From: a virus
Length of the DNA: 64,000 nucleotides
Direction: 5' to 3' (one strand)
IMG/VR virus record: IMGVR_UViG_3300042898_006156
Span: 1 to 64,000 of that record
The notes beneath the pieces are model-generated. The model worked only from the letters and a program-made list of their open reading frames with translations. It was not told where the DNA came from and did no database searches. A program made the translations under genes and the position numbers. Shown in pieces: positions 5,851-44,968 of the stretch. How positions within the stretch are numbered: the first letter of the stretch is position 1; the number at the start of each line of letters is the position of its first letter.

Positions 5851-6207
5851 TTAGTCTCTTGGATCCCAGAATGGATTTTTTCTTTTATATTTTTCTTCTG
5901 CAATAGCCACGCCCATATTGTTTGAGAATCCATCAATCATTCTTCCTATGAGTGATTTCCATTGTGATGAATATGATTCTTTGCTTGCGCTTCCACCTTT
6001 TTCTTTATATGCTTCGAATGCTTTTTCTATGCCTTGTTCAGACATTGCTTCTTGGAGTTCTTCTTCTGAATGTTTGGTTTTCATTTTTTCCTCTTCGGCT
6101 AATTTTACCATAATTTTGGTTATAGTACTAGCTTCAAGGTAAAAATTTGAATTATCAAGTTCGTTTGCAATATTATTTAATGATGCAATAATATATTTTT
6201 TATTCAT
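5851..6207 (-). CDS. hypothetical protein with N-terminal shared module
   Basis: Start moved to ATG 6207 (AAGGA SD); MNKKYIIASLNNIANELDNSNFYLEA. Confidence 0.8.
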   Translation of the reverse strand: MNKKYIIASLNNIANELDNSNFYLEASTITKIMVKLAEEEKMKTKHSEEELQEAMSEQGIEKAFEAYKEKGGSASKESYSSQWKSLIGRMIDGFSNNMGVAIAEEKYKRKNPFWDPRD

Positions 6208-6277
6208 CTGTTTTTCCTTAAAAAAATAAGTGGCAAAATTATGTTTTTGCCACTTATTCAAACAAGTCTTATTTGTT

Positions 6278-6736
6278 TTAGTTAATTGGTGTATATGATC
6301 TCATAATTCGTCTTTTTATTTCATCATATCTTTTTTGATCTCTTGGACTAAGCATAGAATCTTCAATCATGGTATCTAATTCGTCAAAGACATTTTCTAA
6401 ATCACTTACTCTTGGCTTATTATAATCTTTAGCGTGATGACTTAAAATATCATCAGCTCTATTGCTTGTACCCATTGGATCAAGCATATCGCTTACTTGC
6501 ATCATATCACTATCTAATTCTTCACGCATGGAAGGTTCACGTTTAGTTTCATATTCGTCATCATCACCATCTGGATCGCCATATGGGAAATAGTCTTCCA
6601 TATTGTATTCATCGTTTTCGTCCATAGCAATCTTGGACATAACTTTGGTTACTGTGTTCGCTTCGTTGTAGAGGCCATTGTTGTCGAGTTCATTTGCAAT
6701 CTTGTTTAGGGATGCTACGATTTGTCTTTTATTCAT
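6278..6736 (-). CDS. acidic protein with N-terminal shared module
   Basis: MNKRQIVASLNKIANELDNNGLYNEA; remainder unrelated to neighbour. Confidence 0.8.
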   Translation of the reverse strand: MNKRQIVASLNKIANELDNNGLYNEANTVTKVMSKIAMDENDEYNMEDYFPYGDPDGDDDEYETKREPSMREELDSDMMQVSDMLDPMGTSNRADDILSHHAKDYNKPRVSDLENVFDELDTMIEDSMLSPRDQKRYDEIKRRIMRSYTPIN

Positions 6737-6806
6737 ATTTTTTCCTTTTGCAGGGTGATATCATATTTTTACAACTCCTAATGTTTTTTTCCTTTTTACG
6801 AGCCTT

Positions 6807-7040
6807 ATGTATTATTTCAAAGCTATGGAATCACTGACAGAATTCAAAGATTATATTTTAGATAATCTGGGAGAAGAAATCTTTTTTGGAAATATGGAAT
6901 TTTACTATATTTTAGGCTCAAATTATTACTTGAAGATATATGAAGTGGATTTAGACGAATTTGGTTTTCCTGCGCCGATATGGAAAGGATGTTTCGGTAC
7001 AAATATAAGTGTGTTGATTAAAGAATGGAATGGAGAATAA
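6807..7040 (+). CDS. hypothetical protein
   Basis: 77-aa ORF, first of three overlapping genes; start may be 6825. Confidence 0.65.
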   Translation: MYYFKAMESLTEFKDYILDNLGEEIFFGNMEFYYILGSNYYLKIYEVDLDEFGFPAPIWKGCFGTNISVLIKEWNGE

Positions 7041-7455
7041 TATGATTTATCTTTTAGTTGTTCCAGTGGTTATTTCAATGGTTTTTATTTGGCTTTATAT
7101 GTCTTCTTTAGATAATAATAAATCTTTGATGAGATTGAATAAAAGTCTTGATGATGAAATTACAAGTTACAAGAGTGCTCAAAGTAATATGTTGGTTAAG
7201 ATTAGTAAATTAACTAGTGTGTCAGAAGATAATAAAGAAGAGATCAAAAGATTATTATCTGAAATTGAAGTGCATAATTTTAAAGTTGGCAGTAAAGTGA
7301 AATGGTTGGATAGAAGTGGAGAAGAAGAATTTGGTATTGTTTGTGATGATTTCTTTTCTGATAAGAAGCATTTTGTAGTTGTTCGTGGTGTAAAGAATGG
7401 CAAGGTTTCTGGTCGTTATTTTACAATTAGTGCGGAGAAAATAGTTTCCGAATGA
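7030..7455 (+). CDS. membrane-anchored coiled-coil protein with SH3/KOW-like C-terminus
   Basis: N-terminal TM, heptads, FKVGSKVKW motif. Confidence 0.65.
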   Translation: MENNMIYLLVVPVVISMVFIWLYMSSLDNNKSLMRLNKSLDDEITSYKSAQSNMLVKISKLTSVSEDNKEEIKRLLSEIEVHNFKVGSKVKWLDRSGEEEFGIVCDDFFSDKKHFVVVRGVKNGKVSGRYFTISAEKIVSE

Positions 7456-7694
7456 GATTAGTCTTTGCAATTCAATTATATTTTTATTTCGTATGGGCTT
7501 TAGGTAGTGAAGATATAATTGAATGGTTTCTTTATGCTTTATTGATGTGGACTTCTACATATTATTTGCATAGATATAACTGGGAAAAAAGAAAGAGCTA
7601 TAGAATGGCTATAGCTCTTTACAGTACGATGATTTATTGTTTTATATTTTTGTGTAGATTCGTTTCACTCGTCGGGAATAATATCGCTTTCTAA
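7452..7694 (+). CDS. small membrane protein
   Basis: Hydrophobic, ATGA overlap with previous gene. Confidence 0.6.
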   Translation: MRLVFAIQLYFYFVWALGSEDIIEWFLYALLMWTSTYYLHRYNWEKRKSYRMAIALYSTMIYCFIFLCRFVSLVGNNIAF

Positions 7695-8123
7695 GTTTTG
7701 TATTTTCTTTTGTTGTTCTCTTTGAGCGTCATGTGCATTTGCTATTGATATTTGAAATTTGTCTATAAATTCTATTGTTTTCATAATAGAAGCTTTTACA
7801 TCTTCTAAATTTTGATAATTATTATTTCCAGATTTTGTTGGTAAATCTATTGGTGATGTTGATTCTATGTTATTAAGTTCTTGCATCAATTGGTTGTAGT
7901 CAAATGGGCGAGAAGATACATCACCATCGTTTTCTAATATATTTGTTTGTTTGAGTAATCTTGTTAGTGTTCTTTCATCAAAATAATTATATAAAGCCCT
8001 AATGCCATCTTCTAGATCTTGTTTATATTGTATGGCCATAAGTAAAATGGATGCTACTTTATCTGCAGCTTTATATTGGCCATTTTTGTCTAATTTTTGG
8101 GCTATTCTTACTAATTTATTCAT
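7665..8123 (-). CDS. hypothetical protein with N-terminal shared module
   Basis: MNKLVRIAQKLDKNGQYKAADKV. Confidence 0.8.
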   Translation of the reverse strand: MNKLVRIAQKLDKNGQYKAADKVASILLMAIQYKQDLEDGIRALYNYFDERTLTRLLKQTNILENDGDVSSRPFDYNQLMQELNNIESTSPIDLPTKSGNNNYQNLEDVKASIMKTIEFIDKFQISIANAHDAQREQQKKIQNLESDIIPDE

Positions 8124-8460
8124 ATCTTCTTGGTTCTAATTGAGTCTCTATAATATCTTCAGGAAAACCTTTTTCAATTTCTTCTAAAATTTCTGTGAAT
8201 GTTTTATCTTGTTCAATATTTTTATGTGAATATAAGCCTTTTTTAGCTAGTTGGACCTCTATTGGATCGCTTGGGTTGCCTTTTCTCACTGATGAGAAAA
8301 GATCTTCAAAATTCTTAGGATCGATTGTTTTGTGATGTTTTGAAAGGCCATCTTGTAATGATTTATAAAGTTCGCCTTTTCTCACTTCTTCCAATTGTAC
8401 TTCTTGTTGTTCCAATCTTTCTTTTTGTTGGAGAAGCGCTGTTTTTATAAATTTACTCAT
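8116..8460 (-). CDS. hypothetical protein
   Basis: 114 aa, overlaps both neighbours; MSKFIKTA leader. Confidence 0.75.
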   Translation of the reverse strand: MSKFIKTALLQQKERLEQQEVQLEEVRKGELYKSLQDGLSKHHKTIDPKNFEDLFSSVRKGNPSDPIEVQLAKKGLYSHKNIEQDKTFTEILEEIEKGFPEDIIETQLEPRRYE

Positions 8461-8852
8461 TTTAATTTTTCCTCTCTAGATGCTTCAAAATCAAACATTT
8501 CTTGGTCGTCTCTAGTCCAAGATTTACCTGTTGGACCCACTCTTCTTGGTCTAATTACTGGAACCTCTGCATTTGGGTCTATTCTTTTTGCATAATTGAT
8601 TGCATGTTGTAGGTTATTGAAATACTGAAATTCACCATTTATTTTATAACCGAGTCTTCTTTCGAAATTACCATTAGCACGAGTTATAATTACAACTGGT
8701 TTTCCATCAAATTGGACTTCTACTGTTGCTCTATCGCCTCTAGCAGCAATCTTTTTCATTACATCGGTTAAATTACTAGCTTCTTTGTGCATACCTATAG
8801 CTTCTAATTCTTCGCAAATTGTGTTGATTGATTCTAATACTGTTTTATTCAT
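8457..8852 (-). CDS. hypothetical protein with divergent N-terminal shared module
   Basis: MNKTVLESINTICEELEAIGMHKEASNLTDVMKKIA. Confidence 0.8.
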   Translation of the reverse strand: MNKTVLESINTICEELEAIGMHKEASNLTDVMKKIAARGDRATVEVQFDGKPVVIITRANGNFERRLGYKINGEFQYFNNLQHAINYAKRIDPNAEVPVIRPRRVGPTGKSWTRDDQEMFDFEASREEKLK

Positions 8853-9179: not shown

Positions 9180-10145
9180 ATGAAAAAAGCGTTTACTCTT
9201 ATTGAATTACTCGTTGTCATTGCAATCATCGCTATTTTAGCTGCAATCCTCTTCCCTGTTTTTGCCCAGGCTCGTGATAAGGCTCGTTCTTCTTCCTGCT
9301 TATCTAATGAGAAACAAATTGGTCTTGGTCTTATGATGTATACACAAGACTATGATGAGACTTATCCAACTGCATATATGTACAAGAACAACACTGCTAC
9401 TACTAATGGTGGAAGTACAGGTGGATATGTTCACTATTCAGCTATGATACATCCTTATATCAAGAACGATAAGGTTTGGGTATGTCCATCTGATAAGTTA
9501 GGTGGAATAGCTCCAGACAATGCTCCTTGCTTACCTTGGACTGATACAAACACTATGGGATGTGAAGCTCAAGTACCACGCTTGTCTTACATTCCTAATT
9601 CAGCTGTTCTGCCACGAAAAAGAGGCCCACAAGATGCGCCAAGCGTTGTATCAATTGCTGCTGTAGATTTCCCAGCTGACGTTATTGCAATTGCTGAATC
9701 TACTAATCACTTGAGCTGTATTTTCTTAGGTAGTTCTGGACAGCTTAATGTTGAGAGAAGAAATAAATCTCATAGACCAACAAACGCTATGATGAGAACA
9801 ATTAGTGGCGGACAGTGGGCAGGGCAAAACGTGGCAGACGCTACAGGACCAATTTTTGCAATTACCAAGGCTGCTGCTGAAAGTGCTGAAGGTTGGGGTG
9901 GTCCATCTGATTCCGGCGTTACGAATGGTACTGGCTGTCGATCAGTTGCTGCAGACGGTGGATTACATATTAGATTTATGGAACCAGGTCGTCATACAGG
10001 TGGAAGCAATTATGTCTTCGCTGATGGCCACGCAAAGTTCTTTAGATTTGAAACCACAATCAATCCAAACAATTTCCTCTGGGGGAAAACTTATTATCCA
10101 ACAGGTCAGGCAATTCTTGATCAACTTGGAAATCCAGTCCGATAA
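9180..10145 (+). CDS. DUF1559-family prepilin-type N-terminal cleavage/methylation protein with H-X9-DG motif
   Basis: [32 protein letters not shown]; CLSNEKQ...QDYDE; CPSD; [13 protein letters not shown]. Confidence 0.93.
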
Positions 10146-10262: not shown

Positions 10263-10574
10263 ATGAATAAAGTACTCGTTTCTCTTGCAGCTTCTTTGGC
10301 TGTCCTTGGTGTTGTTTTCGCACAGGTTCCAGGTGGTTTTCAGGAAGCTCCACGTCCAGGGCAAGTTCCATTTCCTCTTGGACAGGTTGGTGGAATGAAA
10401 ACAGGTGGTGGAAGTGTTGCTGCTTCTGGCAATTTTGTTTATGTTCTTTCTGGCAACACTCTTTATCAATTTAGTGTTGATGGTTTGAAGCTTGTGGCAA
10501 AGACTACTCTTCCACTTTCAGATCGTGGTCAGGGTGGTCGTGGGCAAGGTCGTCCTGATGGTGTTCAAAAGTAA
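10263..10574 (+). CDS. small secreted Gly-rich protein
   Basis: Signal peptide ending VFA-Q; GAGGT SD. Confidence 0.75.
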   Translation: MNKVLVSLAASLAVLGVVFAQVPGGFQEAPRPGQVPFPLGQVGGMKTGGGSVAASGNFVYVLSGNTLYQFSVDGLKLVAKTTLPLSDRGQGGRGQGRPDGVQK

Positions 10575-10686: not shown

Positions 10687-13600
10687 ATGAAAAGGTATAG
10701 TTTTAGGATCATCACAGCTGGCATAAAAGAAGATATTTTGGGAATTTGTAATTTTCTGAATAAAGATGCAGAATATTATCAAGACTTAAGAGAAACAGTA
10801 AAGCAATATGATCAAAAGTATCAAGTATTTGCTGCTTGGTTATTGGCCCGTAATATTGAACCAAATGAATATATTGAAGCTATACAAAAATATATTGACT
10901 CAAGAAGAATTACTAAATTTTCAGTTGGCGCAAAAGCTGTCAAAATAAACGATGAAGTTTTTGATGATGCAATTAAACTAACAGAATATATCCACGCTCA
11001 ATTTCCTATTTTGCAAGCTGAAAAACAGGCTGAAAATACTGAAATTGAAGATGTTCCTGTTGTAGCAAATAAAGATAATTCCATTAAGATATTTGAGATA
11101 AATGATGCCAACGATGGTAGAAGATTAGTTGGTGATGATACAAGCTGGTGTATCGGCTATAAAGGCCCAAATAATATGTGGCAATCTTATAGAGATAGTC
11201 ATGATGCTTCTTTTTTTGTTGTTGTTGATAATAATCCTCCTACAGAAAATCAAAGAAAAGTTGCAATTGATTTTGCTTCAAGTAATGTTTTATTAACAGA
11301 CATTCCAAATGTTACAGGACATCAACTTTCAAATGGATGGGATTGGGATAAGTATTCTGAATATTTATCTAGCAAGGGAATAAATTTACAAGCAACAAGG
11401 CCAAATCCTGAAACTGGTCAAGAAGAATTAATTCTCAAGAACAAACCCAAAACTACAGAAGAAAGATTACAAAATGGCACATTCAATTATATAGCTGCTT
11501 TGGGTGTGGAAGATATTCTTTTATGGCAATCTGGAAAATCTAAAGTCAATGGTGAAGATAGAGACATAGAAAGAATAGATAAAAATAGTTTAGATATTAT
11601 AGAAGAGATTTCAAGTAGATCTGGTATTGCGTACATCCTTAATAACCCTGATGCTAAATTCTATACTTCAAGATGGATGGGATTAGGCAAACGTGTAAAA
11701 GATGAAGTTTTAGAATATTTATCTAGAAGTGTTGGTGGTGAAGATTTGTTGATGAAATATGTCAACACTGGGTTGGGAATTCCTGAAACGCAATATCAAT
11801 TTATTAGAAAAAACAAAAATTTACTTACTTCATACTTGAGAAGTCTAATTATAGGCGGTAGAAATTTTAGTCCTGCTATGCAAATTGATTTAATGAACTT
11901 AAATAGAAAAGATTTATTTAAACAATTAATTGAAAAACAGGGTGGTATTTCTGAATTTGCTAAACCAACCTTAGAAGAAAAACCAGATTTTTTGAGAATT
12001 TATCTTGAAACTTTGATTGAAAATAACAATTTACAAACTGGTATGCGAGCTGACCTTTCTGATGCAGATTTATTATTAAAGTTAAACGACAGAGATTTAT
12101 TGATAAAATATATTAGCACTGTAAAAACTTTTGTTCCAAATGGTGTACGAAATTTTATTTTCGAAGATCCTAAATTTCCTGAATTATATTTATTATATGC
12201 AAAAAATAGATTGACAGATGATAATTTAGTAGATTACACTTCGGCTTTTGACAAACAAGATTTAAAAAATGTCGTATTGCAATCAGGGGATAAATCACTT
12301 ATCAAAGAAGTGGCTATGGCAACTGGTTTCAATGAAGAAGATTTTGAAAAAGCAAAAGAACTTGGGGTATTGGAAGAAGTAAAGTATTCAATATTATGTC
12401 CAAAACCTTCCGAAAAAATTGCTAAATATTACAATCCTAACGATCCATTTGATCTTTCGTTAATTGCCCAAATTAAAGATGTAGATGTTTTACGTGAATT
12501 TTCTCTTAATAACTTTGATGAATATAGTGAAACTTATCATAATGATTGGAGTAATAATCCAACCATAAATTTTGCATTTGATCTTAAAGAACACGAACAA
12601 ACAATCAAAAAAGATGCTCATTATGCATACAAAGATAGACCAGAAGAAATTGTTCCTAATAATGCAAATCAAACTTTATTATGGGCTATTTATAATGATG
12701 GCAAATTATTTAAGAAATTTGAAGAATTAGAGATGAGTGATGAAGCAAAAGAAAATTTCAGAGATGCAATCCAAGAATTTCAAAATGCAATACAAGATAT
12801 AAATTTTTGGAAAAATTTCTTTAAGAATATAGATCATTTTGCTGATTGGATAGGTAGTGAACTTAATTTTAATGAAAATGATTTTGCAAACATTTTAAAG
12901 TTTATTCCACAAGAATTTTTAGAAGATCCAGAAATTAAAGAATTTTTGCAGAGAAATATGAACAGCATTTCTACTAAGAATTTTATGAATAATATAGACA
13001 TTGAAAAAACACCTTGGCTATATGAAGACTATATAAATCAATTTGTAGATGGTGAAAGAAATGTAAGATCTGAATTTTACAGAGTATTATATCGTGGTAG
13101 AAGTTATGCATTTGAATTCCTTTCAAAAATACTTGAAAAAAGAAAATTTAGTGATGAAGAAATTGATTCATTTAACAACTTTACACCAGATATTATGTTA
13201 GAATTTTTGGATATATATACACATCATTATCCAGAAGTAAAAGAAGATCCAAATTTTTATAATTTAGGAATATTTAGTTATTTTAGAAATCGTCCAAATT
13301 TAAATCATCAATTACATTTATTGAGAAATTATCCTAAATATTTTGAAACGAGAATTTTAGAGAGAGATGTTTATGTGGATATATTGCCAGAAATAAGGGC
13401 AGCATTAGTTCATATGTATCCTAACCTTGCTCCGAAAATTCTTGCATATGAAAGACAATCAAAATATGGCCCTGGATATTTTGATGAAGAAGCTGGCCAA
13501 GTGATGAAAGGAAAAAGACCAACACCGCCTGGGACACAAGAAGAATTACCTGATCCATTTGCGTCAGAAGAACCTGAAGAAGATGAAGAAGAAGAACCTA

Positions 13601-13710
13601 TCACTGCTTTTGTAAAATCTATGGTGAAAATAGCTCAGAAATTAGATTTTAATTATCAATACAAGTTAGCAGATAAGTTTACACATATATTGAGAAAATA
13701 CAATGTTTAA
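10687..13710 (+). CDS. large protein, WC-motif N-terminal domain, C-terminal shared module; putative virion internal protein
   Basis: DTSWCIGYKGPNNMWQSYR; paralogue of next gene; ends SMVKIAQKLDFNYQYKLADKF. Confidence 0.8.
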   Translation: MKRYSFRIITAGIKEDILGICNFLNKDAEYYQDLRETVKQYDQKYQVFAAWLLARNIEPNEYIEAIQKYIDSRRITKFSVGAKAVKINDEVFDDAIKLTEYIHAQFPILQAEKQAENTEIEDVPVVANKDNSIKIFEINDANDGRRLVGDDTSWCIGYKGPNNMWQSYRDSHDASFFVVVDNNPPTENQRKVAIDFASSNVLLTDIPNVTGHQLSNGWDWDKYSEYLSSKGINLQATRPNPETGQEELILKNKPKTTEERLQNGTFNYIAALGVEDILLWQSGKSKVNGEDRDIERIDKNSLDIIEEISSRSGIAYILNNPDAKFYTSRWMGLGKRVKDEVLEYLSRSVGGEDLLMKYVNTGLGIPETQYQFIRKNKNLLTSYLRSLIIGGRNFSPAMQIDLMNLNRKDLFKQLIEKQGGISEFAKPTLEEKPDFLRIYLETLIENNNLQTGMRADLSDADLLLKLNDRDLLIKYISTVKTFVPNGVRNFIFEDPKFPELYLLYAKNRLTDDNLVDYTSAFDKQDLKNVVLQSGDKSLIKEVAMATGFNEEDFEKAKELGVLEEVKYSILCPKPSEKIAKYYNPNDPFDLSLIAQIKDVDVLREFSLNNFDEYSETYHNDWSNNPTINFAFDLKEHEQTIKKDAHYAYKDRPEEIVPNNANQTLLWAIYNDGKLFKKFEELEMSDEAKENFRDAIQEFQNAIQDINFWKNFFKNIDHFADWIGSELNFNENDFANILKFIPQEFLEDPEIKEFLQRNMNSISTKNFMNNIDIEKTPWLYEDYINQFVDGERNVRSEFYRVLYRGRSYAFEFLSKILEKRKFSDEEIDSFNNFTPDIMLEFLDIYTHHYPEVKEDPNFYNLGIFSYFRNRPNLNHQLHLLRNYPKYFETRILERDVYVDILPEIRAALVHMYPNLAPKILAYERQSKYGPGYFDEEAGQVMKGKRPTPPGTQEELPDPFASEEPEEDEEEEPITAFVKSMVKIAQKLDFNYQYKLADKFTHILRKYNV

Positions 13711-16507
13711 TAATCGTATAGTAATAGCAAATAAAGAATTATTTATTTCAATTTTCAAGTCTGTTGGAAAAGATTATAACAGCTATAAAGAAATTGTAAA
13801 TAAATATAATTCAGTATTTAAGCCTCTTGCTGCTTGGATGTTGGCAAGAGATTCTGATGAAAATGCTATTAACGATATTGTTAGTCATTTAACCCAATAT
13901 ATAAATCGTAAAAAATTAAATCCGGCCAATATCAAAGTATCTAAAAGTTTTGTTGTTATAAATGACGAGCAATTTGATGACTTGATGGCACTTATTGATT
14001 TTGTTCACGGTAATTTCCCTATAGCAAAAAAACAAGAAGAAAGAGTAGAACAATCTGAAACTAGTCATACTCCTATCCTCACTGGCGACGGAATTAAGGT
14101 TTTTAAAGTAGAAAAAGCTCAAGACAGCAAACAATTAGCTGCAGATACTTCTTGGTGTATTGCTTATCCAGGCGAAAATAATATGTGGCAAAGTTATAGA
14201 AGCAATCAAGCTGCTACATTTTATATTGTATGGGACGAAAATCCACCCACTCCTAATCAAAGAAAAGTGGCTCTGCAATTTAATAATAACAACGTTCAAA
14301 TTACTGATATTCCCAATAGAACAGGTTTTAATTTATCTGATGACATTTCTTTCCAATATGAAGGAAAAATGATTACCGGAAGAGATATTCCCACATATCT
14401 TACTTATTTAAAAAGTAAAGGAGTGGATATAGATGCTACAACAACTAATCCTGAAACTGGCGAAGAAGAAAAAATATTAATAAATAAACCTCTTACACCA
14501 GAAGAAAAATTAGAAACTGGTTTAGGTAATTACGTTAAACGCCAAGATATAAATGTTGATGATGTAAAAAGTTGGTCTACTGGAAAATTTGTTTTAAGAA
14601 GTACTACAAAAGATGGATTTATCAAAGACAATGGAGATAATACTTATTTACTTTCTAATCAAAGGTATGTAGTAAAACCAATTGAAATCCCTGAAGAAAT
14701 GATTGCTGAAAAAACGCATTTAGGCAAAAGTGCAGGAATGTTGCCTTCAGATTCAACGGCTCATTTATTAGAATCTATAACCATTGAATCTGATAGCGTC
14801 AAAACATATCTTTCCAAATTCATCGGTATGGGTTGGATATTACCCAATGATATTTTTGAATATTTATTTGATGTTCCTGGTGGCAAAGATTATTTAATTC
14901 AATATGTAAATACTGGATTAGAATTACCTCGCACTCAAAGAGAAAAAATAAAAACCAATAATCAATTATTTAATTCATATGTCAAGCAACAATTATCTGC
15001 TTGGGAACTGGGACATAATAATGGTGAGATATTAGAATATCTCGACCCTAACAACCCTAGTGATAAAGAAAAAGTTTTAAAAGCATTTTCTAAAACCAAA
15101 AATTTTAGTGGAATTCCTCAAAATTGGAAAGAGAATGTACCTCAAATTGGAGTATCTGTTGCTACCGCTGGCGATGATTTTAATTTCAATGATCCTTTAG
15201 CTGAAAAATTAGCTATTGCTAAAGGTTTGTTTAAAGTTTATCAAAAAAATCCAACTTTAGAAAATACAAGAATTTATCTACATACTCCAGAAGCTATTGA
15301 ACCTTTAAGAGCACAAGCAGAAGCAGATGGATATAATGCTGAAGTTCTTAATTCTCCAAGTAATTTTGCTTCATTTGCTGGAAGATTTACATTAATTCCT
15401 GATGAATTTAAGAATCTTCCTGAATTTTATGAAATATCTAAAATTGCAGTAGCTTCTTACAAAACAAGACTTGACTTTATTCAAAAAATTAGAAGTAAAG
15501 ATGAATCTGAACTAACTCAAGATGATTTAGAAACTGGTGTTGCATTAGTTTTAGTAACTGGGCAAGGTGTTCAATATACTGCATTAGAAAATTCTGGAAA
15601 ATTCTGGAATTATTTATATGATAATTTTGAAAGATATTATAGTGGTAGATTTAGTAGAGTTGGATTAGAAAAGAGAGAAATTCCAGACGATGTTGATCAG
15701 GAAGATGAAGACTTTGATGAGGAAGAATATCCAACTTATGATGACCCTGGTGAACAAAAATGGATAATTAATGCAAGTTTATCTAAAATTCCAAAATATG
15801 CATTGATAAATGAGCCTGATTTAAGAGAAAAATTCTTAAGTAGATTTAGTCCAAAGCTTCTTGTCCATAAACTTTTAGAATCTCCAAGTTCTGAAAATGG
15901 GGCCAATTTAGCTGCAGAATATATAAACAGTATCGAAGATCTTCCAATTTCAATAACAATGTACTTAACATATAATAAAAATCCTATAACAGAAAAAATA
16001 TTAAAAACGTCAAGTTTAGATGAATATAATAATTATATGAAAAAGAATCGTAGTCAATTAGATATAAGAGACTATGCAAGATTATTAAATTTTTATCCTT
16101 TTATTAGTGATCAAATTTCAGACCAGATGTTATTAAGACAATGGAAAAATATGAAATCTGTAGGTATTAATAATACTGAACAATTTGAAGTGTTTAATTC
16201 TTTAATTAATACAAGACCAGAATTTTTTAGAAATCATTGGCAAGAAATAGATTTATTTCCTGTTTGGATAAATGAATTAAAAGAAAGAAATATTATCGGT
16301 ACACAAAAACCTCAACCAATTCAAGAAACTGATGAACAGATGCAAGAAAGCTTAAATAATGTTTTCAAGAATATGTCTGCTTTACCTAATGATGAAGATG
16401 TATTAGCTTCTGTTAAATCTATGCTGAAAATCGCTCAAAAACTTGATATTAAAAAAGAATATAGGTTAGCAGATAAACTAACCTATATATTGACAAAAAA
16501 GATATAA
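13703..16507 (+). CDS. large paralogue of 10687-13710; putative virion internal protein
   Basis: DTSWCIAYPGENNMWQSYR, NQRKVA, TDIPN, NPETG, YVNTGL shared; ends SMLKIAQKLDIKKEYRLADKL. Confidence 0.8.
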   Translation: MFNNRIVIANKELFISIFKSVGKDYNSYKEIVNKYNSVFKPLAAWMLARDSDENAINDIVSHLTQYINRKKLNPANIKVSKSFVVINDEQFDDLMALIDFVHGNFPIAKKQEERVEQSETSHTPILTGDGIKVFKVEKAQDSKQLAADTSWCIAYPGENNMWQSYRSNQAATFYIVWDENPPTPNQRKVALQFNNNNVQITDIPNRTGFNLSDDISFQYEGKMITGRDIPTYLTYLKSKGVDIDATTTNPETGEEEKILINKPLTPEEKLETGLGNYVKRQDINVDDVKSWSTGKFVLRSTTKDGFIKDNGDNTYLLSNQRYVVKPIEIPEEMIAEKTHLGKSAGMLPSDSTAHLLESITIESDSVKTYLSKFIGMGWILPNDIFEYLFDVPGGKDYLIQYVNTGLELPRTQREKIKTNNQLFNSYVKQQLSAWELGHNNGEILEYLDPNNPSDKEKVLKAFSKTKNFSGIPQNWKENVPQIGVSVATAGDDFNFNDPLAEKLAIAKGLFKVYQKNPTLENTRIYLHTPEAIEPLRAQAEADGYNAEVLNSPSNFASFAGRFTLIPDEFKNLPEFYEISKIAVASYKTRLDFIQKIRSKDESELTQDDLETGVALVLVTGQGVQYTALENSGKFWNYLYDNFERYYSGRFSRVGLEKREIPDDVDQEDEDFDEEEYPTYDDPGEQKWIINASLSKIPKYALINEPDLREKFLSRFSPKLLVHKLLESPSSENGANLAAEYINSIEDLPISITMYLTYNKNPITEKILKTSSLDEYNNYMKKNRSQLDIRDYARLLNFYPFISDQISDQMLLRQWKNMKSVGINNTEQFEVFNSLINTRPEFFRNHWQEIDLFPVWINELKERNIIGTQKPQPIQETDEQMQESLNNVFKNMSALPNDEDVLASVKSMLKIAQKLDIKKEYRLADKLTYILTKKI

Positions 16508-16510: not shown

Positions 16511-18286
16511 TTATTCAAAATCATCTGGAAGTACGAGTTCTTCCTCACCATCTTCCAGTTGTTTCTTTCTATGTCTAGCTAAATTAAAAGATTCACCTTC
16601 TGGAAGGTCCTGGAATCTTAATTGAGCTGGATCTTCAGTATACATTTGAGAGCCAGTGATATAACTCATTTTTGGTTTGTATTCAACATCATAATCTTGT
16701 AAATTAGGCAAAGTGAATTGGACACCTAATAATTCTTCAAACTTTTGCACTGATTCATTATTCTCATATGTTGCAAAAATCTTTTTAGCTATTTCTAAAC
16801 TTAATTTATCTGAAGAAGTATCCATAGCCCCATAGGTAGATTGATCTAAATCAAATTCATTTTCATCTAAGCTGAAACCAAAATTATCATTCATATATCT
16901 TGCATGCTCATCATATTGATCAGCGAAATGATAAAGCAAATCTGTCAATGGATTATTTCTTAATAGATTTTCTGCTGTCTTGAGCTTGTATGCATCTACA
17001 CCACCACGAAGCTCATAAAATTCTTGTTCTTGTGCTAGATCAGGTAAATAAATATCATCAACTTCTCTTTTTAATTTATCAAAAGCAACACTTACAACAG
17101 TGTCTGCTAATTCATTGATGTCATAATCTTCTAAAGAAAAAGTTCTTCCATAGGGTTTGCTTTTTAATCCTTCTTCTATAGCACTTGTAGCTTCTTTGAC
17201 AAGATCAACCATATTAGCATTTCTTATATTTTGCTCAGTAAATTCATCTTGGTTAAAATCTTCAGAAGTAATTCCAAATCTAGCAAAATCTCCATTGTCA
17301 TCATCATCGCCATAGTCTTCAAGATATGGCCCATAAGCAGATTCAGTTATAGAATATCTTAAATCATCAGGATAAGTAGACCAATCTACTTCACTCGGAT
17401 CCCATTCACTAGCTCTTTGATGAACCCAACCTTCACCAGCTTTTTTGTTAATATCATCTCTGCCTTCAAAGAATTCTGCAATTTTTTCTACTTTATCTTC
17501 ATCGTGAATTTCAGAATTGTTTGGGCCTTTAATTTGCTTTACTTTTCCATCTCTGCCAACTTCAATTGTAGCTTCTGGATTGTTAAACTTATTACGCAAA
17601 GAGTAAATTGTGCAATCTCCATATTCAACAGATTTAGCATATGAACCAACACAGTGATGCATAAAATTGCCTTCAACATCTAAATCATTCGGATCTTCCA
17701 CTCTTACTATCATAGAACCGTCTTCAAATCTGTGAACAATCTTTTCATCAACTAATTGCCCAGATTCATCTCTCTTAAATGGTAAATAGAATTTTCCAGA
17801 TCCTCTTTCTGTCATAGCTCTGTGCCATTCATTAGAATCTTCGTATGCTTCTTCAAGTGATTTTGTCCCAATGTTATAGTTAGGATTATCTAAAGTATGT
17901 GCTCTAAAGAAGTCTTGAATCTCATCCAGGTTGTCTTTTATATCACGTAATGGTTTATTGTAATCCCACCTATCATCTCTTGGATCATCTGAAAGTTTAT
18001 TAGCTCTTTGAAGTTTATATTGATATAATGCCCAACTTTGAAATCTTGGATCATAATCTTGAACAAGTTGTTTTTCAGTTCCAGATGGCTTATATCCAGA
18101 TTCAAATAAACTTTTTAAATCATCTATCATCATAGAAGGATTCTGATTCAATGCACCAATAGCTTTACCTTTTTTGTCATTAGGTAAACTATGCACAAAC
18201 TGAATAATCTGATCACTCACGCCTTTTGATTGCAAGGCATTGATTGCATCTTCTATCGCTGCTAAAATTGTTCTGTTATACCACAT
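16511..18286 (-). CDS. PcfJ-like domain protein
   Basis: DLDVEGNFMHHCVGSY...IYSLR...ATIEV...QIKGPNN; MWYNRTILAA leader. Confidence 0.75.
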   Translation of the reverse strand: MWYNRTILAAIEDAINALQSKGVSDQIIQFVHSLPNDKKGKAIGALNQNPSMMIDDLKSLFESGYKPSGTEKQLVQDYDPRFQSWALYQYKLQRANKLSDDPRDDRWDYNKPLRDIKDNLDEIQDFFRAHTLDNPNYNIGTKSLEEAYEDSNEWHRAMTERGSGKFYLPFKRDESGQLVDEKIVHRFEDGSMIVRVEDPNDLDVEGNFMHHCVGSYAKSVEYGDCTIYSLRNKFNNPEATIEVGRDGKVKQIKGPNNSEIHDEDKVEKIAEFFEGRDDINKKAGEGWVHQRASEWDPSEVDWSTYPDDLRYSITESAYGPYLEDYGDDDDNGDFARFGITSEDFNQDEFTEQNIRNANMVDLVKEATSAIEEGLKSKPYGRTFSLEDYDINELADTVVSVAFDKLKREVDDIYLPDLAQEQEFYELRGGVDAYKLKTAENLLRNNPLTDLLYHFADQYDEHARYMNDNFGFSLDENEFDLDQSTYGAMDTSSDKLSLEIAKKIFATYENNESVQKFEELLGVQFTLPNLQDYDVEYKPKMSYITGSQMYTEDPAQLRFQDLPEGESFNLARHRKKQLEDGEEELVLPDDFE

Positions 18287-18681
18287 TATGTTTTACTCAA
18301 TATATTATTTAAATGCTTATGTAATTCTGGTTCTATTTCAGAAAGAGCTTTTATATCATTCCTATTGTTATTAATTTGGTCATAATGATCTCTATACACA
18401 TTAATCATATTTGCGAAAGAAGATTGATCCATTTTATAATCAGGATCATTTAATATAGTGTCCAACATTATTTTTGATTGTGCGTGGTCAAATAATAATG
18501 GATCTATTACCATTTGTTGTAAATATATATTTGCATCCTGACCAAATTTATTGTCAATTTCTGGTTGAGAATCACCTTTGAAATTTTTATTCATGGGTAA
18601 TCTATTTTTATAATCATCTTTCTGTTGTGTTGGATATCTATAAAATGGAACAGACATATCTTGAGCTTTTCGATACCACAT
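18286..18681 (-). CDS. hypothetical protein with MWY leader
   Basis: MWYRKAQ; stop overlaps next start. Confidence 0.75.
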   Translation of the reverse strand: MWYRKAQDMSVPFYRYPTQQKDDYKNRLPMNKNFKGDSQPEIDNKFGQDANIYLQQMVIDPLLFDHAQSKIMLDTILNDPDYKMDQSSFANMINVYRDHYDQINNNRNDIKALSEIEPELHKHLNNILSKT

Positions 18682-18716: not shown

Positions 18717-19079
18717 TTATTGGGAGGCTTCTTTTTCACATAACCAAAGATAATTATTTATTTTTTGGACTACATCACAACTTGTTTCGTAAAATCCACC
18801 TAAAGAATTTTCCACTTCTAAATGTAAATCTAATTCATCTATTATATTGGATATCGCTTTGTGAGAAACGAATGATCCTTTAGGCTGCCAAATATTATCT
18901 ATTTTTTCATATGAATTTAATTCAAATTCGATAAGAAATTCTTTCATTATTTCATTGAAATTTATTTTTGAAGAATCTAATCTTTGTGTTTTAAGTAAAT
19001 TATAAAAATCTTTTTCTGAAAAACATCTATTATTTTCCATCATACACTCGATGAAAACTACAGCAAAGAATTCTTCCAT
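18717..19079 (-). CDS. hypothetical protein
   Basis: 120-aa ORF; start uncertain. Confidence 0.65.
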   Translation of the reverse strand: MEEFFAVVFIECMMENNRCFSEKDFYNLLKTQRLDSSKINFNEIMKEFLIEFELNSYEKIDNIWQPKGSFVSHKAISNIIDELDLHLEVENSLGGFYETSCDVVQKINNYLWLCEKEASQ

Positions 19080-20143
19080 AAATTAATTCTACCACTCTTT
19101 GCAGTGATGACAGGATTACGAGGATCAAATTCAAGATTTTCTCTGGCGTGTTTTATGTTTTCCGGATCCCAAGTAATGTAATGTTTTATTGGTTTATCCT
19201 CTGAATACGACCTGAAAAATTCATTAGGATCCATAATAATACTGTCATACCCTAATGAATTTAAGAATCTTTGAATAATCTCACCCTTGAAATCTTTGCT
19301 GTCATCATCAAAAGCTGCAAGAAATCCTTTTAAATAATCCATCATCATTACAGCTGAAACTTTGCCGTCAACAGATCCAGTCGTCGTTTGAATCAAATCT
19401 TCACACATTTGATATGCATCACTTGAGTTCATATAATCCATCAAAATATTGTAAAGTTTTAGAATAACTGTCTTGTATGAATTATTATCAGACTCATCAA
19501 CGTCATTTTCATTCAAAAATTCTAATGTTTCGTTTGTATCATCAACAAAAGTTTTTTCTGGATGTTCTGTATCATTTTCAGAAGTTAAATGAATTGGATT
19601 TTTCATTCTTATGTGAGCGGGAATTACTCTTGGTTTATTTGAGCCTAAAACAGTATCTTTTGCAATTTTTTCTACTAAGTATTGTAGGCTTGCAACAGTA
19701 CCATCTTCGTTAAAATAAGGGCGATATCTTGGATCATCACCATATAAGTTCCATAGATAATAAGAGTCTTCATTATCTTCATCAATCAATTCATATTGCA
19801 AATCTGTAATTTTTAATTTTTGATCTTTTCCAGAACCAGTGTAATTCTGTGTGGCATCTTGCTCATCACTTGTGAAATAAAATCCTTGACCAAAAGCATT
19901 AGATGAGACACCTTTATTTATGTCAAATCTGTCAAATTCGTGTGTAGTTCCATGATAGACAGTTTGCTCTGGCACGTAATGATCTTTAGCCCAATCATTG
20001 AAGAATAAACTTTGAGGTTCTTTTTGTGTTTCTAAAAGCTCTGGAGATTTCGCTTTCTGTTCTGATTTTTCTTTACTTTTAGGCTGGGATTGTTCTACAT
20101 CTAAACCAGGAAGTTGTAATTGTTGTGCTAATTTATACCACAT
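19058..20143 (-). CDS. putative ADP-ribosyltransferase (ART-PolyVal-like) with MWY leader
   Basis: VYHGT..FDRFD...FGQGFYFTSD...A..Y; IRMKNP; LGYDSII. Confidence 0.7.
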   Translation of the reverse strand: MWYKLAQQLQLPGLDVEQSQPKSKEKSEQKAKSPELLETQKEPQSLFFNDWAKDHYVPEQTVYHGTTHEFDRFDINKGVSSNAFGQGFYFTSDEQDATQNYTGSGKDQKLKITDLQYELIDEDNEDSYYLWNLYGDDPRYRPYFNEDGTVASLQYLVEKIAKDTVLGSNKPRVIPAHIRMKNPIHLTSENDTEHPEKTFVDDTNETLEFLNENDVDESDNNSYKTVILKLYNILMDYMNSSDAYQMCEDLIQTTTGSVDGKVSAVMMMDYLKGFLAAFDDDSKDFKGEIIQRFLNSLGYDSIIMDPNEFFRSYSEDKPIKHYITWDPENIKHARENLEFDPRNPVITAKSGRINLWKNSLL

Positions 20144-20661: not shown

Positions 20662-20771
20662 AAGAATACCCTCCAAAAGTTATATTCTTATTCTATTTAA
20701 TTGCTTTGGATGCTTCTAAAAAAATAATTCTTAAATAGAAATATCCCCTATATTATAGGGGATATTTTTAG

Positions 20772-20843
20772 TAGCTCCATTAAGAATCGAACTTAAAATT
20801 AAACTTTAGAAGAGTCTTGTTATATCCGTTTAACTATAGAGCC
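20772..20843 (-). tRNA. tRNA-Arg (TCT)
   Basis: Cloverleaf GGCTCTA...TGGAGCTA; loop CT-TCT-AA; GTTCGATTC T-arm; TGG-TATAAT promoter upstream. Confidence 0.85.
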
Positions 20844-23387: not shown

Positions 23388-23417
23388 ATCTTTATTATAT
23401 CACAGAAAAGGGAAAGG

Positions 23418-23488
23418 AGCACTATAGACGAATCGAACGCCTGAAATCACATTACAAGTGTGATGTTTTACCCCTAAACTAATAGTGC
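23418..23488 (-). tRNA. tRNA-Thr (TGT)
   Basis: GCACTAT...ATAGTGCT; anticodon arm TCACA-CTTGTAA-TGTGA. Confidence 0.9.
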
Positions 23489-23495
23489 TGGTAAA

Positions 23496-23566
23496 TTCTC
23501 CGGTAAAGATTCGAACTTCAACTAAAGGCACCAAAAACCTCTGTGCTACCGTTACACCACCAGAGA
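23496..23566 (-). tRNA. tRNA-Gln (TTG)
   Basis: TCTCTGG...CCGGAGAA; arm GAGGT-TTTTGGT-GCCTT; GTTCGAATC. Confidence 0.9.
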
Positions 23567-27429: not shown

Positions 27430-27451
27430 ATAACCCCCCCTGTAAGGGGGT

Positions 27452-33184: not shown

Positions 33185-33244
33185 TTATCAATCTTTTTGA
33201 AAATGAACTTGTAAGGATTACTTACAAGTTCATTTTTTGTTTAA

Positions 33245-35590
33245 TTAGACAGGTTTAATATATTCAATAAACTTAGCTAAATAAGCAGACAATTTTGCTA
33301 CAGTTGGTGCTTTGAGCATAATTCTATAGTCATTCAAAGCCTTATTATATAATTCAGCTCTAAACTTAGCTATTTCTTTGCCTGACAACGCTGACACTTC
33401 ACTCACATCTGTATATTTAGCATCAATTTCAGCAATATCAACAAGCTCTAAATTACCTACCGCAGATTCGAAAAATTGTTTCGTTTCTTGATCTTGAAGA
33501 GCGTCATAGCTATCCAAAGAAGTTTTAACATACAATTTAAAATCTTCATTTAAGGAGGTAAATCCTTCAACAAGCTTAACGCTCAGTAAATCATCAACTT
33601 CTAATTTTGTATAGGTGTCAACGAGTTTTGGAACAGGTTGTGGTGCAGGGGCTGGTTGAGGTTGAGGCGTTGGTTGTGGAGTTGGTTGAACGACATTACC
33701 ATCACCAATAAAATTACCACTGTCCCAAGTTTGTAAATCCTTTGCTTGCATTTGGCCTGTAGCGGTTAATTTAACATTTGCTAGATTACCATCTTCAACC
33801 ATTGGACAAGCATCTTCTCCCATTCTTGTCCAGGCCCAAGAGGCAAATGCTATAAGGTTTGGATATAATTTTGAAAGCTTTTGCATTTCTATGTTAATGG
33901 ATTTTTGCCATTCAACATCTCCACATCCATATTCTTCAACAATTACTGCTACGCCCTTATCCAAAAGAGGCTTAAGATTTGGAATTACATCAGCAGCATT
34001 GTTGTATGCATGATAAGCATATGCATCAACTAAAACAGGATCAATTAAGTCATTTGCTTCTGGTGTTGTATTTTCTTTTGACCACTTTGAAGTTGGACAG
34101 ATAATAAATGCATCTACATCAATAGATCTATAGATTGCTGAAGCTTTTTCAAGAATAGGCTTACACAAACTCCAGTCACCAATATCGTTAGGCTCATTTG
34201 TAATACTGACCCAGACTGGCATTCCCTTCCAATTGTTTGCCATAAGTTCAACAAGTTTATAGAAAGCTTCAGACTTTTCATACAAATCGTTGCCTGTTGG
34301 AATATGTTGAGGTCCTGCAATTACATGGCATCCAGCAGTAAGCATTTTACCAATAGTGTCTTGGATTCTATTTCTATAAATGTGATCAGAAATATATTTA
34401 TCTGGATTGAACAAAAGTCTTAAGAACTTATGTCCAAGATACTTCAATGAACCAAAATATCCAATTCTATTATAATCAGGTGATTCTGACCATAAATATT
34501 GGTTGCCATAATTGCCACCTCTAATAGCTGTAATTGCACTAGCTCCAGTTGTGCCTTCATAAATATTGTATGGCGTACCATCAAGCTTTACTAACTTTCC
34601 ATCAACAACTCTAAGTCTTGGTGGCAATTTAGATTCTGGGCATTTAGTGACCCAGGAGTCTCCGCCAACTTGAACGTTGATACCTGGCCAAATCCAGTTT
34701 TGCAGTTTCCAGTTATAATCAAATAATCCAAACTGTAGATTATGAATACCACCTTCTTTTGGATAATCAAAGACTATTTCGCCTTCTGAATACCAATATG
34801 GGTCAGGTCCATCAGCTACCTTTGTTGCACCATCTGGAAGAACATTTGCTCCATCTCTTCTAGCATATGCAATCCAAGGTTGTTGAAACATTGAAGCACC
34901 TTTAGCTAATAAGAACCAACCACCCCAAGTAGTAAATGTCTTAGCTGGCATCTTGATAATATATGGAATGTGTAATTTACCATCAGGAGCCGGATCTTGA
35001 ATTTTATTAGATAAAATTTCTACAAATGGAGTCTTGACTCTCTTTTGCTTAGTAGTAATCTCAAATGAAACATTTTCAGCCATTTGATCTGCAAGCACTG
35101 CCCAATGGTAAGTAAAGAAAATAAATCTAAAACTGTCATATTTTCCAACATCAAATGTGCTTATATCAAAGTTGAAAGTTTGAGTTTCTCCAGAGAATAA
35201 ACTAAATTTGAAATATTTTTTAGCTGCATCATCATTAGGAACCCAGTTAATCCATTGTTCAGTAGTTTGTCCAGTTGTTGGATTTGTGTAAGTTCTTCTC
35301 ATCCAAACTTGGCATAAATCTGCATCAATTGGAGCTGATGGATTTGTAGTTCTGATCTTTAAATTTACATCTCCAAGATCTACAGTTGGAATCAATTCAA
35401 GTTTTTCAAAAAATGATGCAAATGAAGATACTTGAAAATCTTCGAATTTGCTCTTATTTACTTTGTCAATTAGGTTGAAATCTTGTTGCAATTCTTGTGT
35501 TGGCTTGAAAAAAATTTCACCAATTTCTCTGCCTTTGTCTTTTACCTGGTCAAAATCAGTAGGTAGTTTCTTGTTAAAAAAATTAAACAT
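33245..35590 (-). CDS. multi-domain protein with GH5-like (clan GH-A) glycoside hydrolase domain
   Basis: ITNEPND acid/base, YHAY, VIVEEYG nucleophile, WAW; PQPTP linker; AGGAG SD before ATG 35590. Confidence 0.75.
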   Translation of the reverse strand: MFNFFNKKLPTDFDQVKDKGREIGEIFFKPTQELQQDFNLIDKVNKSKFEDFQVSSFASFFEKLELIPTVDLGDVNLKIRTTNPSAPIDADLCQVWMRRTYTNPTTGQTTEQWINWVPNDDAAKKYFKFSLFSGETQTFNFDISTFDVGKYDSFRFIFFTYHWAVLADQMAENVSFEITTKQKRVKTPFVEILSNKIQDPAPDGKLHIPYIIKMPAKTFTTWGGWFLLAKGASMFQQPWIAYARRDGANVLPDGATKVADGPDPYWYSEGEIVFDYPKEGGIHNLQFGLFDYNWKLQNWIWPGINVQVGGDSWVTKCPESKLPPRLRVVDGKLVKLDGTPYNIYEGTTGASAITAIRGGNYGNQYLWSESPDYNRIGYFGSLKYLGHKFLRLLFNPDKYISDHIYRNRIQDTIGKMLTAGCHVIAGPQHIPTGNDLYEKSEAFYKLVELMANNWKGMPVWVSITNEPNDIGDWSLCKPILEKASAIYRSIDVDAFIICPTSKWSKENTTPEANDLIDPVLVDAYAYHAYNNAADVIPNLKPLLDKGVAVIVEEYGCGDVEWQKSINIEMQKLSKLYPNLIAFASWAWTRMGEDACPMVEDGNLANVKLTATGQMQAKDLQTWDSGNFIGDGNVVQPTPQPTPQPQPAPAPQPVPKLVDTYTKLEVDDLLSVKLVEGFTSLNEDFKLYVKTSLDSYDALQDQETKQFFESAVGNLELVDIAEIDAKYTDVSEVSALSGKEIAKFRAELYNKALNDYRIMLKAPTVAKLSAYLAKFIEYIKPV

Positions 35591-35675
35591 ATACACTCCT
35601 TTAAGCCGTAAAGCTATGTGTTATATTATTGTTGTAAATGTTTTTCAATTTAATTATTTATGGTATGATATTAAA

Positions 35676-43151: not shown

Positions 43152-43167
43152 AACTAAAATGGAGGCA

Positions 43168-43875
43168 TCACATTCGATGCCTCCATTTTTCTATAAAATT
43201 CTTCTCAAGAGCAAATGTATTCTTCATATATTCTTCTTGATTTTTAAACGTTCCATGAGATCTTTGTCCATAATGATCCACTTTAGAAGCTGCAACCATT
43301 CCATGTTTGCAGCCTTTTTCTTGTAATCTCATAATGATATCGTTATCTTGGAAAAAGAAAGCAAATTGTTCATCTAATGGAAAAAGCCAATCTTTGACTT
43401 CTTTCTTCATAATCCAACACCAACCACAGAAATTAATGATTAATTCAAAGCCAACTCTTACCATTGTTTCTGGTGTATATCTGTGCTTAATTTCAGCTCT
43501 TGGAACAATTCCTACTTGCTCTGTTGGCGATCTTGGAGAAGCTGTATCAAGTTCGTGATTGATCATAGCTGCTTCCATTTTAACCCACCAATCTTTATGG
43601 AAATTGACATCATTATTTACAATCGCAATATATTCAGAATCACAGTTTTCAATTGCGATATTTAAATAAGTGTTGTAATTAAAATCAATTGGTGGTTTAA
43701 GATAAAAGTTTACGTGTTGAAAATTCCATTCTCTATCTTTGTTTGATTCCACTAACACTACGTTAAAATTTTCAGATCCAATTGAATTATGAAGAGAATC
43801 TAATGCATTTTGTGTCATTTTGTAAATATCATTGTTTACAGTGTTAGTAAGCATAATAAGCGAAAGTTTTGTCAT
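43168..43875 (-). CDS. glycosyltransferase family 2
   Basis: VVLVES, FNYNTYLN, IVNNDV, LDEQF.FFFQDND, VDHYG. Confidence 0.85.
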   Translation of the reverse strand: MTKLSLIMLTNTVNNDIYKMTQNALDSLHNSIGSENFNVVLVESNKDREWNFQHVNFYLKPPIDFNYNTYLNIAIENCDSEYIAIVNNDVNFHKDWWVKMEAAMINHELDTASPRSPTEQVGIVPRAEIKHRYTPETMVRVGFELIINFCGWCWIMKKEVKDWLFPLDEQFAFFFQDNDIIMRLQEKGCKHGMVAASKVDHYGQRSHGTFKNQEEYMKNTFALEKNFIEKWRHRM

Positions 43876-43902
43876 AAAACTATTATAAATAAAAAACCAG
43901 AT

Positions 43903-44094
43903 CTATTGATCTGGTTTTTGTGCTGTACGATATTCTTTCATATTAAAAGATTTCTTTTTTCTTTTCTTATTTTTATTGTAATTTGAATAAGCTATTGCCC
44001 ATGCTGTAGATTCTCTATCATCCTTGGATTTTTCAGGATAAAAATCAGAATCATCTAATAAAGTATCTACTAAATCATCTACTGGCTTTGGCAT
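43903..44094 (-). CDS. ChaB-like small protein with basic tail
   Basis: MP...ESTAWAIAYS; KKRKKKSFNMKEYRTAQ. Confidence 0.55.
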   Translation of the reverse strand: MPKPVDDLVDTLLDDSDFYPEKSKDDRESTAWAIAYSNYNKNKKRKKKSFNMKEYRTAQKPDQ

Positions 44095-44095
44095 T

Positions 44096-44968
44096 TTAGG
44101 ATCGATTCGGGGCTTGTGTTGGTGGAGTAATTGGTGCTGCTGGTGCTGCTGGAGTTTTAGGTGTTCCAGTTATTGAGGTTAATGGCTTGGCTTCTACACC
44201 ATAAATTTGTGACGCTTGCTGCTTGCCTTCAGAATCTACATTTCCGAAATCACCAACTTGAAGACCTTTTTCTGTTTTTGTTTTACTCAATAACTCTTCT
44301 AGTTTTGTAGTATCTTGGTTGTATTTTTTCATTTCTTGAATTCTTGCTTCTAAACTATCTTTAAAACTATCAGTTTTCAAGTATGAGTTCCACTCTTTAA
44401 CTAAACCTGGTAAGTTTCTATCTTCTCTGTTTGGAAGAGCTTTTTCACCAGCAGCTGTCAAACCTTCAAGAGGAGAAGCTAATTCAATATTAACTCTATT
44501 GCCTTCACTCCCTACTCCAAGTCCCTGTATAGGTGTATCATTGACCATAGATGGGAAAGCTGTTGGATCATTTGGCTTAATTGGAATAGCATTTTGATTG
44601 AAATATGTGTTAAATTCTTTAATCAAGTCTGTGTAAGATTTGTAATCTATAAGATTATTTCTGTATTGTTTTTCAACTGCAGAAATCATATCTTCAAACT
44701 TCGGAGGGTTGGTTCTCTTCAATTGATCCTGAAAATATTTGATGATTGCATTTTGGCTGGTTGGCAGTACGTTGGTAACCGGAGCAGGGGTAGTAGAAGG
44801 TTTGACTGGTTGTTTAGTAGCAGGTTTGACTGGAGTTTTGACAGCTGGTTTGACTGGGGGTTTAGGAGCAGGTTTAGCTTGGGCAATTTTGAGCAAATCA
44901 TCAGCCTGTCTATGCATGCCATGTTGATCAAGTATTTGACTTATTTTAATAAATTCTTTTGTAAACAT
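44096..44968 (-). CDS. Pro/Lys-rich protein with N-terminal shared module
   Basis: FIKISQILDQHGMHRQADDLLKIAQ then PVKP repeats. Confidence 0.8.
   Translation of the reverse strand: MFTKEFIKISQILDQHGMHRQADDLLKIAQAKPAPKPPVKPAVKTPVKPATKQPVKPSTTPAPVTNVLPTSQNAIIKYFQDQLKRTNPPKFEDMISAVEKQYRNNLIDYKSYTDLIKEFNTYFNQNAIPIKPNDPTAFPSMVNDTPIQGLGVGSEGNRVNIELASPLEGLTAAGEKALPNREDRNLPGLVKEWNSYLKTDSFKDSLEARIQEMKKYNQDTTKLEELLSKTKTEKGLQVGDFGNVDSEGKQQASQIYGVEAKPLTSITGTPKTPAAPAAPITPPTQAPNRS

Follow-up and report, generated by a model that had tools for sequence, protein, structure and literature searches.

A solitary TPR-like hairpin recurs at the termini of unrelated proteins in an uncultured huge phage

The first 64,000 nucleotides (64 kb, hereafter the window) of a single 113,559-bp virus contig of ~33% GC, IMG/VR record IMGVR_UViG_3300042898_006156, encode nine proteins that share a small module at one of their ends. 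The contig is a fragment of an uncultured huge phage, because its relatives in IMG/VR are numerous and include contigs of 261–358 kb. The module, of ~34 (34–40) residues and with the pattern h-x-x-L-h-K-I-A-x-x-L-D-x-x-G-x-Y-x-x-A-D-x-h-x-x-h-h-x-K-h-A, is, as judged from sequence comparisons, a solitary hairpin resembling a tetratricopeptide repeat (TPR), closest to TPR_10/TPR_12, rather than a demonstrated member of a Pfam TPR family. It probably serves as a shared docking handle. As to where it docks, our analysis leads us to favor, tentatively, the prohead, so that the module may load diverse accessory proteins into the capsid. What is new is that one TPR unit, by itself, acts as a tag at a protein end in this proposal; shared leaders as such are already exemplified by phage T4.

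Nine copies on proteins with different bodies

A first-pass annotation of the window had placed the module at the N-terminus of seven proteins and at the extreme C-terminus of two others, and all nine copies were confirmed in coordinates, strand and protein end; the shorter ATG starts at 6207 and 26245 agree with paralogues. On the minus strand, N-terminal copies occupy 6088–6198 of open reading frame (ORF) 5851–6207 (118 aa; 14.8 bits without paralogues, the best shuffle reaching 8.7), 6617–6727 of ORF 6278–6736 (152 aa; 24.9 bits), where an acidic low-complexity stretch follows, 8028–8123 of ORF 7665–8123 (152 aa; 23.1 bits), starting from Met1, 8733–8843 of ORF 8457–8852 (131 aa; 19.0 bits), 28367–28477 of ORF 27452–28486 (344 aa) and 44867–44968 of ORF 44096–44968 (290 aa; 16.6 bits), where a Pro/Lys/Thr-rich linker follows. 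On the plus strand, an N-terminal copy lies at 26254–26364 of ORF 26245–27429 (394 aa), and the C-terminal copies lie at 13603–13707 of the 1,007-aa protein 10687–13710, supported by a leave-out profile and AlphaFold2 helices, and at 16403–16504 of its 934-aa paralogue 13703–16507 (16.2 bits). The protein of ORF 6278–6736 has 76 full-length homologues in public data.

Leave-one-out profiles, from which close paralogues were also omitted, recovered seven of the nine copies at 14–25 bits, against at most 10.4 bits for the best of 2,625 shuffled ORFs. The member at 26245 reached 5.5 bits with a small in-genome profile, and 20.4 bits, compared with 10.3 for shuffled sequences, with a cross-genome profile that excluded both itself and its orthologue. 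The expectation that a profile would lift every copy above shuffled background fell short only for ORF 27452–28486, the weakest member, which is marginal (7.1 versus 7.8 bits); its orthologue in a large relative (G002) has the same N-terminus.

The bodies had been described as sharing nothing apart from one paralogous pair. BLAST of the bodies without the module indeed returned that pair (10687/13703, E 3e-73) as the only strong similarity, but also a weak match, 31 residues long, of 26191 to 27452 (E 0.003). In module pairs, identical residues use the same codon in 46% of cases and the DNA identity is mostly ~50%, which rules out a DNA repeat or recombination linker. The low codon sharing indicates that selection acts on the peptide and that conservation is at the protein level.

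Recurrence in relatives and in public proteins

The count of nine, real as it is, proved an underestimate: two more clear N-terminal copies lie past the window on the same contig, in 86194–86826 and 99698–100156 (~14 bits against at most 7.4 for shuffled sequences), together with three divergent look-alikes. Five large relatives gave 9–22 profile hits per genome at E <= 1. An iterated profile run on four genomes, namely the present contig (G000) and three large relatives taken whole (G001, G002 and G005), yielded 59 copies on 58 ORFs (11, 21, 20 and 7, respectively), with a single copy per protein in 57 of the 58. Placement is strikingly terminal: 48 copies start within 30 residues of the N-terminus, nine end within eight residues of the C-terminus and two do neither, so that 57 of 59 are terminal, versus 13 expected under uniform placement. 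Single-linkage BLAST sorted the 58 proteins by their bodies into ~27 groups, and the same signature columns recur across them (D15 in 54 and A23 in 51 of the 59 copies). Behind N-terminal copies there is usually a low-complexity stretch, either acidic or rich in Pro. The tagged genes sit in variable islands, mostly outside the head gene block, and their set varies even between contigs that are ~90% identical.

A profile search of 1.84 billion representative proteins retrieved 1,563 clusters at E <= 0.001, the best 150 of which are mostly small unannotated proteins with one copy at residues 4–42. Thus the idea of a portable helix-turn-helix of ~30 residues at either end of unrelated proteins is borne out well beyond the window. 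Some public proteins carry two or three spaced copies, or a copy at each end (P0121, P0130, P0131, P0139 and P0140), and some "internal" copies start with the usual MNKRQ and look like the product of fused neighboring genes. In P0003, P0109, P0070 and P0001, which are public relatives of the small tagged proteins, the module is joined either to a ribosomal protein S21-like fragment or to acidic sequence containing a CxxC...CxxC zinc ribbon.

Pfam and PHROGs searches of the nine proteins and of 10 further tagged proteins gave nothing useful, and PHROGs searches of 50 tagged proteins gave only matches attributed to the LysM repeats of a single member. A search of 185,579 bacterial and archaeal genomes turned up no relative. 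Four tagged proteins compared with cultured phages by tblastn gave no match, and neither did an IMG/VR scan with the public protein P0124.

Likeness to a single TPR unit

The first-pass annotation had recognized no named family for the motif, a statement that no longer stands. The proteins that the module profile matched at five to eight places were of the fungal NLR type and bear TPR_10/TPR_12 repeats (Pfam E down to 1e-158). Alignment by hhalign of the module profile used in profile–profile comparisons (A2) against 54 TPR_10 units gave a probability of 96.5% and an E-value of 9e-10 over columns 4–30 (27 columns), the E-value being optimistic, as the units came from proteins chosen by A2 profile hits. 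A canonical TPR is a helix-turn-helix of 34 residues whose signature residues, small or hydrophobic, stand at positions 4, 7, 8, 11, 20, 24 and 27, with Pro at 32. Columns 7, 10, 11, 14, 18, 20 and 23 of A2 (L, I, A, L, G, Y and A) fit TPR positions 4, 7, 8, 11, 15, 17 and 20. TPR positions 24, 27 and 32 fit only in a subset with a short helix B, through Ala27 and Pro31/32 (KIAQxxP, as in KIAQAKP and KIAQYYP), and helix B is longer by one turn in many members. The motif thus maps to a protein-interaction repeat and not, as could have been the case, to an enzymatic or DNA-binding domain.

The module resembles TPR_10/TPR_12 (PF13374, PF13424) in its order of helix A, Gly turn and helix B and in matching signature positions, but differs in that TPRs act as tandem arrays of three or more, whereas the module is one repeat at a protein end. 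The module proteins of the four genomes lack the array of at least three repeats by which a TPR superhelix is recognized. No Pfam TPR family matched the nine whole proteins at E <= 0.1, and among curated TPR models run on the 59 isolated segments TPR_10 matched two, with a best E of 0.004, below the cut-off. For the 1,007-aa protein, AlphaFold2 gave a model of mediocre quality (pLDDT 63.7), with which Foldseek retrieved only generic alpha-solenoids. The model places helices at 973–986 and 994–1004 after a disordered stretch of ~45 residues (928–972), all at low confidence. For the two big paralogues, no sequence match was found in the PDB, and the ESM Atlas gave no useful lead.

A probable docking handle, possibly for the prohead

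A lone TPR hairpin exposes hydrophobic faces that are normally covered by neighboring repeats, and should thus bind a partner surface or other copies of itself. We propose that such a hairpin, joined to the terminal residues, first or last, of unrelated phage proteins that turn over rapidly, in many cases via a disordered acidic or Pro-rich linker, would dock on one common partner surface or on other module copies. The preferred dock would be the prohead core or scaffold, in which case the tagged accessory proteins would end up inside the capsid and be ejected along with the DNA, in the manner of the T4 capsid-targeting sequence (CTS). The prohead protease might trim the tag near the conserved K-h-A junction.

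Several observations point in this direction. In all four genomes, the head gene block encodes, between the genes for TerL and the portal, a tagged protein of ~150 aa; the module is retained in 89 of its 93 full-length homologues. One tagged protein, at L091:8453–8947 on the minus strand (G001 208450–208947), consists of the module plus two LysM peptidoglycan-binding repeats and has no signal peptide, as would suit a protein that gains access to the cell wall from the virion. The head region also encodes a small capsid protein (284 aa; phrog_2522, E 5e-68, matching the family profile from position 35 onward), adjoined by an acidic 562-aa scaffold candidate and a protease fusion. Separately, the head-block tagged protein (contig 99698–100156; L002:17698–18156) bears a C-terminal stretch, GPDxVPGPAYxDPGNxASSPSM ... 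FTWEE, that is highly conserved in all four genomes.

The closest precedent is T4: its non-conserved internal proteins bear targeting sequences, and its ADP-ribosyltransferase Alt undergoes processing at each end (PMC9026906). The T4 CTS of IPI, IPII, IPIII and Alt is likewise a short terminal peptide on unrelated, poorly conserved proteins in a large phage with a prohead protease, and the module shares with it the unrelated bodies and the gene turnover. However, the CTS is N-terminal, has 10–19 residues, is not a folded hairpin and shows no sequence resemblance to the module by eye, whereas the module has 34–40 residues, is TPR-like and is also found C-terminally and occasionally internally. 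Packaging and cleavage are proven for the CTS and are predictions for the module. As a second comparison, the coat-binding helix-turn-helix at the C-terminus of the P22 scaffolding protein is also a terminal two-helix hairpin of ~30 residues. Following that precedent, the hairpin would dock on a capsid protein without a delta domain; here, the capsid protein is small and there is a separate scaffold candidate. The scaffold of 80alpha and CpmB of SaPI1 share capsid-binding ends. In dockerin–cohesin pairs and encapsulin cargo-loading peptides, a small terminal module addresses many unrelated cargo proteins to a common scaffold or shell; these have no sequence or fold relation to the present module, and neither a cohesin-like repeat protein nor a shell pocket was identified.

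A second N-terminal leader in the same genomes adds circumstantial support. The sequence MWY[KR]xA(Q) opens seven of the 124 ORFs of the present contig, and 15, 11 and 9 ORFs of G001, G002 and G005, and is very non-random; [KR]x[AS]Q within the first eight residues is enriched on the contig, at 10 ORFs versus 1.2 expected. In the window, the genes with the MWY[KR]xA[Q] leader encode a PcfJ-like protein (16511–18286), the product of 18286–18681 and an ART-PolyVal protein (19058–20143), all on the minus strand. Elsewhere on the contig they lie at 80051–82349, 88470–91187 and 105750–106283, and the gene directly upstream of the portal gene carries the leader. The protease starts with MY[KR]VAK in the two closer genomes read. 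Module genes cluster with MWY-leader genes in variable islands of G000, G001 and G002, and the ART-PolyVal protein, with its own leader in the same island, recalls the ADP-ribosyltransferase Alt of T4. Families such as ART-PolyVal and PcfJ-like were reportedly predicted by Iyer et al. in 2017 to be packaged and injected. The clustering with such polyvalent-type proteins counts, circumstantially, for capsid loading. Homology of the MWY leader to helix A of the module was not established, the score shift being weak (median -2.6 versus -6.4 bits, p 9e-6). An untagged 114-aa gene within the tagged cluster (8116–8460, minus strand) starts with MSKFIKTALLQQ, a short K-x-A leader-like sequence, and is kept in G002 (32945–33295).

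Other findings weigh against capsid loading. It had been anticipated that a genome scan would find terminal hits that include scaffold or head genes; terminal hits are many and one head-block member is tagged, but the scaffold candidate lacks the module (A2 against its N-terminus, probability 0.5%), the other head-block proteins gave no hit at E <= 1 when ORFs were scanned with the module profile, and neither the module nor a match to it was found on any scaffold, capsid or portal protein. Relation to the C-terminal hairpin of P22 gp8 was rejected (hhalign with A2, probability 0.6%). No receptor was identified, and among the proteins of at least 250 aa in G000 and G001 none has internal repeats, as a hub would, at E < 1e-3. 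No late promoter shared by the module and head genes emerged, as no motif is common to both. Conservation of the K-h-A-x junction at the module end is loose. Nor does the module consistently surpass the body in conservation, and sometimes it falls below it. TPR-like hairpins are generic interaction motifs, found elsewhere in internal and multiple copies. Finally, megablast with 20 kb against cultured phages gave no match, which leaves the phage with no cultured relative. As for promoters, TTGTAAA was dropped as a candidate, lying upstream of a few module genes and also of unrelated genes.

In a more elaborate version of capsid loading, which we regard as quite improbable, single TPR hairpins on dozens of different proteins would stack in trans into a shared solenoid, forming the inner protein body of the capsid with interchangeable effectors destined for ejection; the tag, usable at either protein end, would be clipped at K-h-A by the prohead protease.

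Other explanations of the shared module

Next to loading into the prohead, the explanation that survives best is an assembly handle for a complex outside the virion, in which the hairpins would associate, by pairing or stacking, with one another or with a hub and so gather accessory proteins in the infected cell, for example for host takeover or replication. We consider it somewhat unlikely. The need of a lone TPR hairpin for a partner would be satisfied in this way, the natural proteins with two or three modules or one per end could act as cross-linkers, and the location of most tagged genes outside the head gene block agrees with it. However, the AlphaFold2 model of P0140, a poor one with a mean pLDDT of 54.7, shows no confident packing of its two modules, the search for a hub found no protein with repeated receptor domains, and the conserved head-block member is left unexplained.

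Alternatively, the module may bind a single component of the host (a chaperone, RNA polymerase, the ribosome or a protease, for example) and thereby bring diverse effectors to the same machine. Binding of chaperone tails is common among TPR domains. The bodies, moreover, evolve fast, are small and acidic and are arranged in tandem, as is typical of host-takeover and anti-defense genes, and P0003 combines the module with an S21-like fragment. On the other hand, the TPR clamps known so far require three repeats, and the module persists in relatives that probably infect different hosts and whose portals are only 49% identical; the search of bacterial and archaeal genomes gave no relative. A host target is unlikely in our assessment.

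It is very unlikely that the copies have no common function and represent an amphipathic helix-Gly-helix cap that recurs by descent within one expanding family and by convergence. Several small tagged proteins may indeed be diverged paralogues of one tandem family, the largest linkage group, and the TPR signature is a simple structural pattern; nevertheless, the same signature columns recur in ~27 body groups and at both protein ends, nearly all copies are terminal and the module is kept across distant relatives. Least probable of all is a recognition element for a phage enzyme, either a degron or adaptor site for the AAA+ ATPase encoded at 58670–60274 or the leader of a modifying enzyme, since, despite an extreme-terminal placement at either end that is typical of unfoldase tags and the presence of this ATPase with its AAA_lid_3 lid domain, a folded 34-residue hairpin is unlike known degrons and the module clusters of G000, G001 and G002 have no enzyme gene that accompanies them consistently.

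Source contig and related phages

CheckV estimates the completeness of the contig at 32%, and the contig ends just past the protease gene. It encodes TerL (contig 96525–98636), the portal (106317–108680) and a 1,383-aa protein whose N-terminus is the head-maturation protease, fused to a long extension. Also present are replication genes for a DnaE-type polymerase, sliding clamp, clamp loader, RecA, RecJ and a DnaB-like helicase, along with ribonucleotide reductase. Five tRNA genes (Arg-tct, Thr-tgt, Gln-ttg, Glu-ttc and Asn-gtt) lie on the minus strand of the window at 20771–20843 and 23416–23780. Among 50,697 deposited phage genomes none is similar, the sole match being a remote TerL at ~24–27% identity.

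For the freshwater bS21 huge phages, Chen et al. 2022 proposed a Bacteroidota host (PMC9723584). Head block, genome size and GC are similar in the present phages, but bS21 itself was found only in G005, so that membership of the same clade was not established. Strong ribosome-binding sites of the AAGGAG type stand upstream of the capsid and other head genes in all four genomes, which is unexpected for a Bacteroidota host as proposed for those lake phages. The window also encodes a type IV pilin-like protein (N_methyl plus DUF1559/SBP_bac_10, E 3e-10; 9180–10145, plus strand) with a small secreted-looking neighbor (10263–10574, plus strand); this pair is kept beside the tagged-gene island in G001, and G002 and G005 have copies of both. 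The pilin-like pair hints at a host outside the typical Bacteroidota. Two large proteins without the module (30485–33184, plus strand, and 33245–35596, minus strand), with RGI-lyase/fn3-like and GH5 cellulase domains, could be glycan-degrading receptor-binding or depolymerase proteins.

Implications

At the least, this study describes a TPR-like module that recurs as a single unit and escapes both Pfam and PHROGs. If the tag addresses a common site, a large set of accessory proteins of huge phages would form one functional class, hidden from curated family models and comprising over 1,500 clusters of sequences, of which nearly all lack annotation. Should that site be the capsid, the module would illustrate how one isolated repeat unit can serve as an address, and would be a natural cargo-loading handle for phage engineering, usable at either protein end, and the injected-protein repertoire of uncultured phages could be read directly from their genomes.

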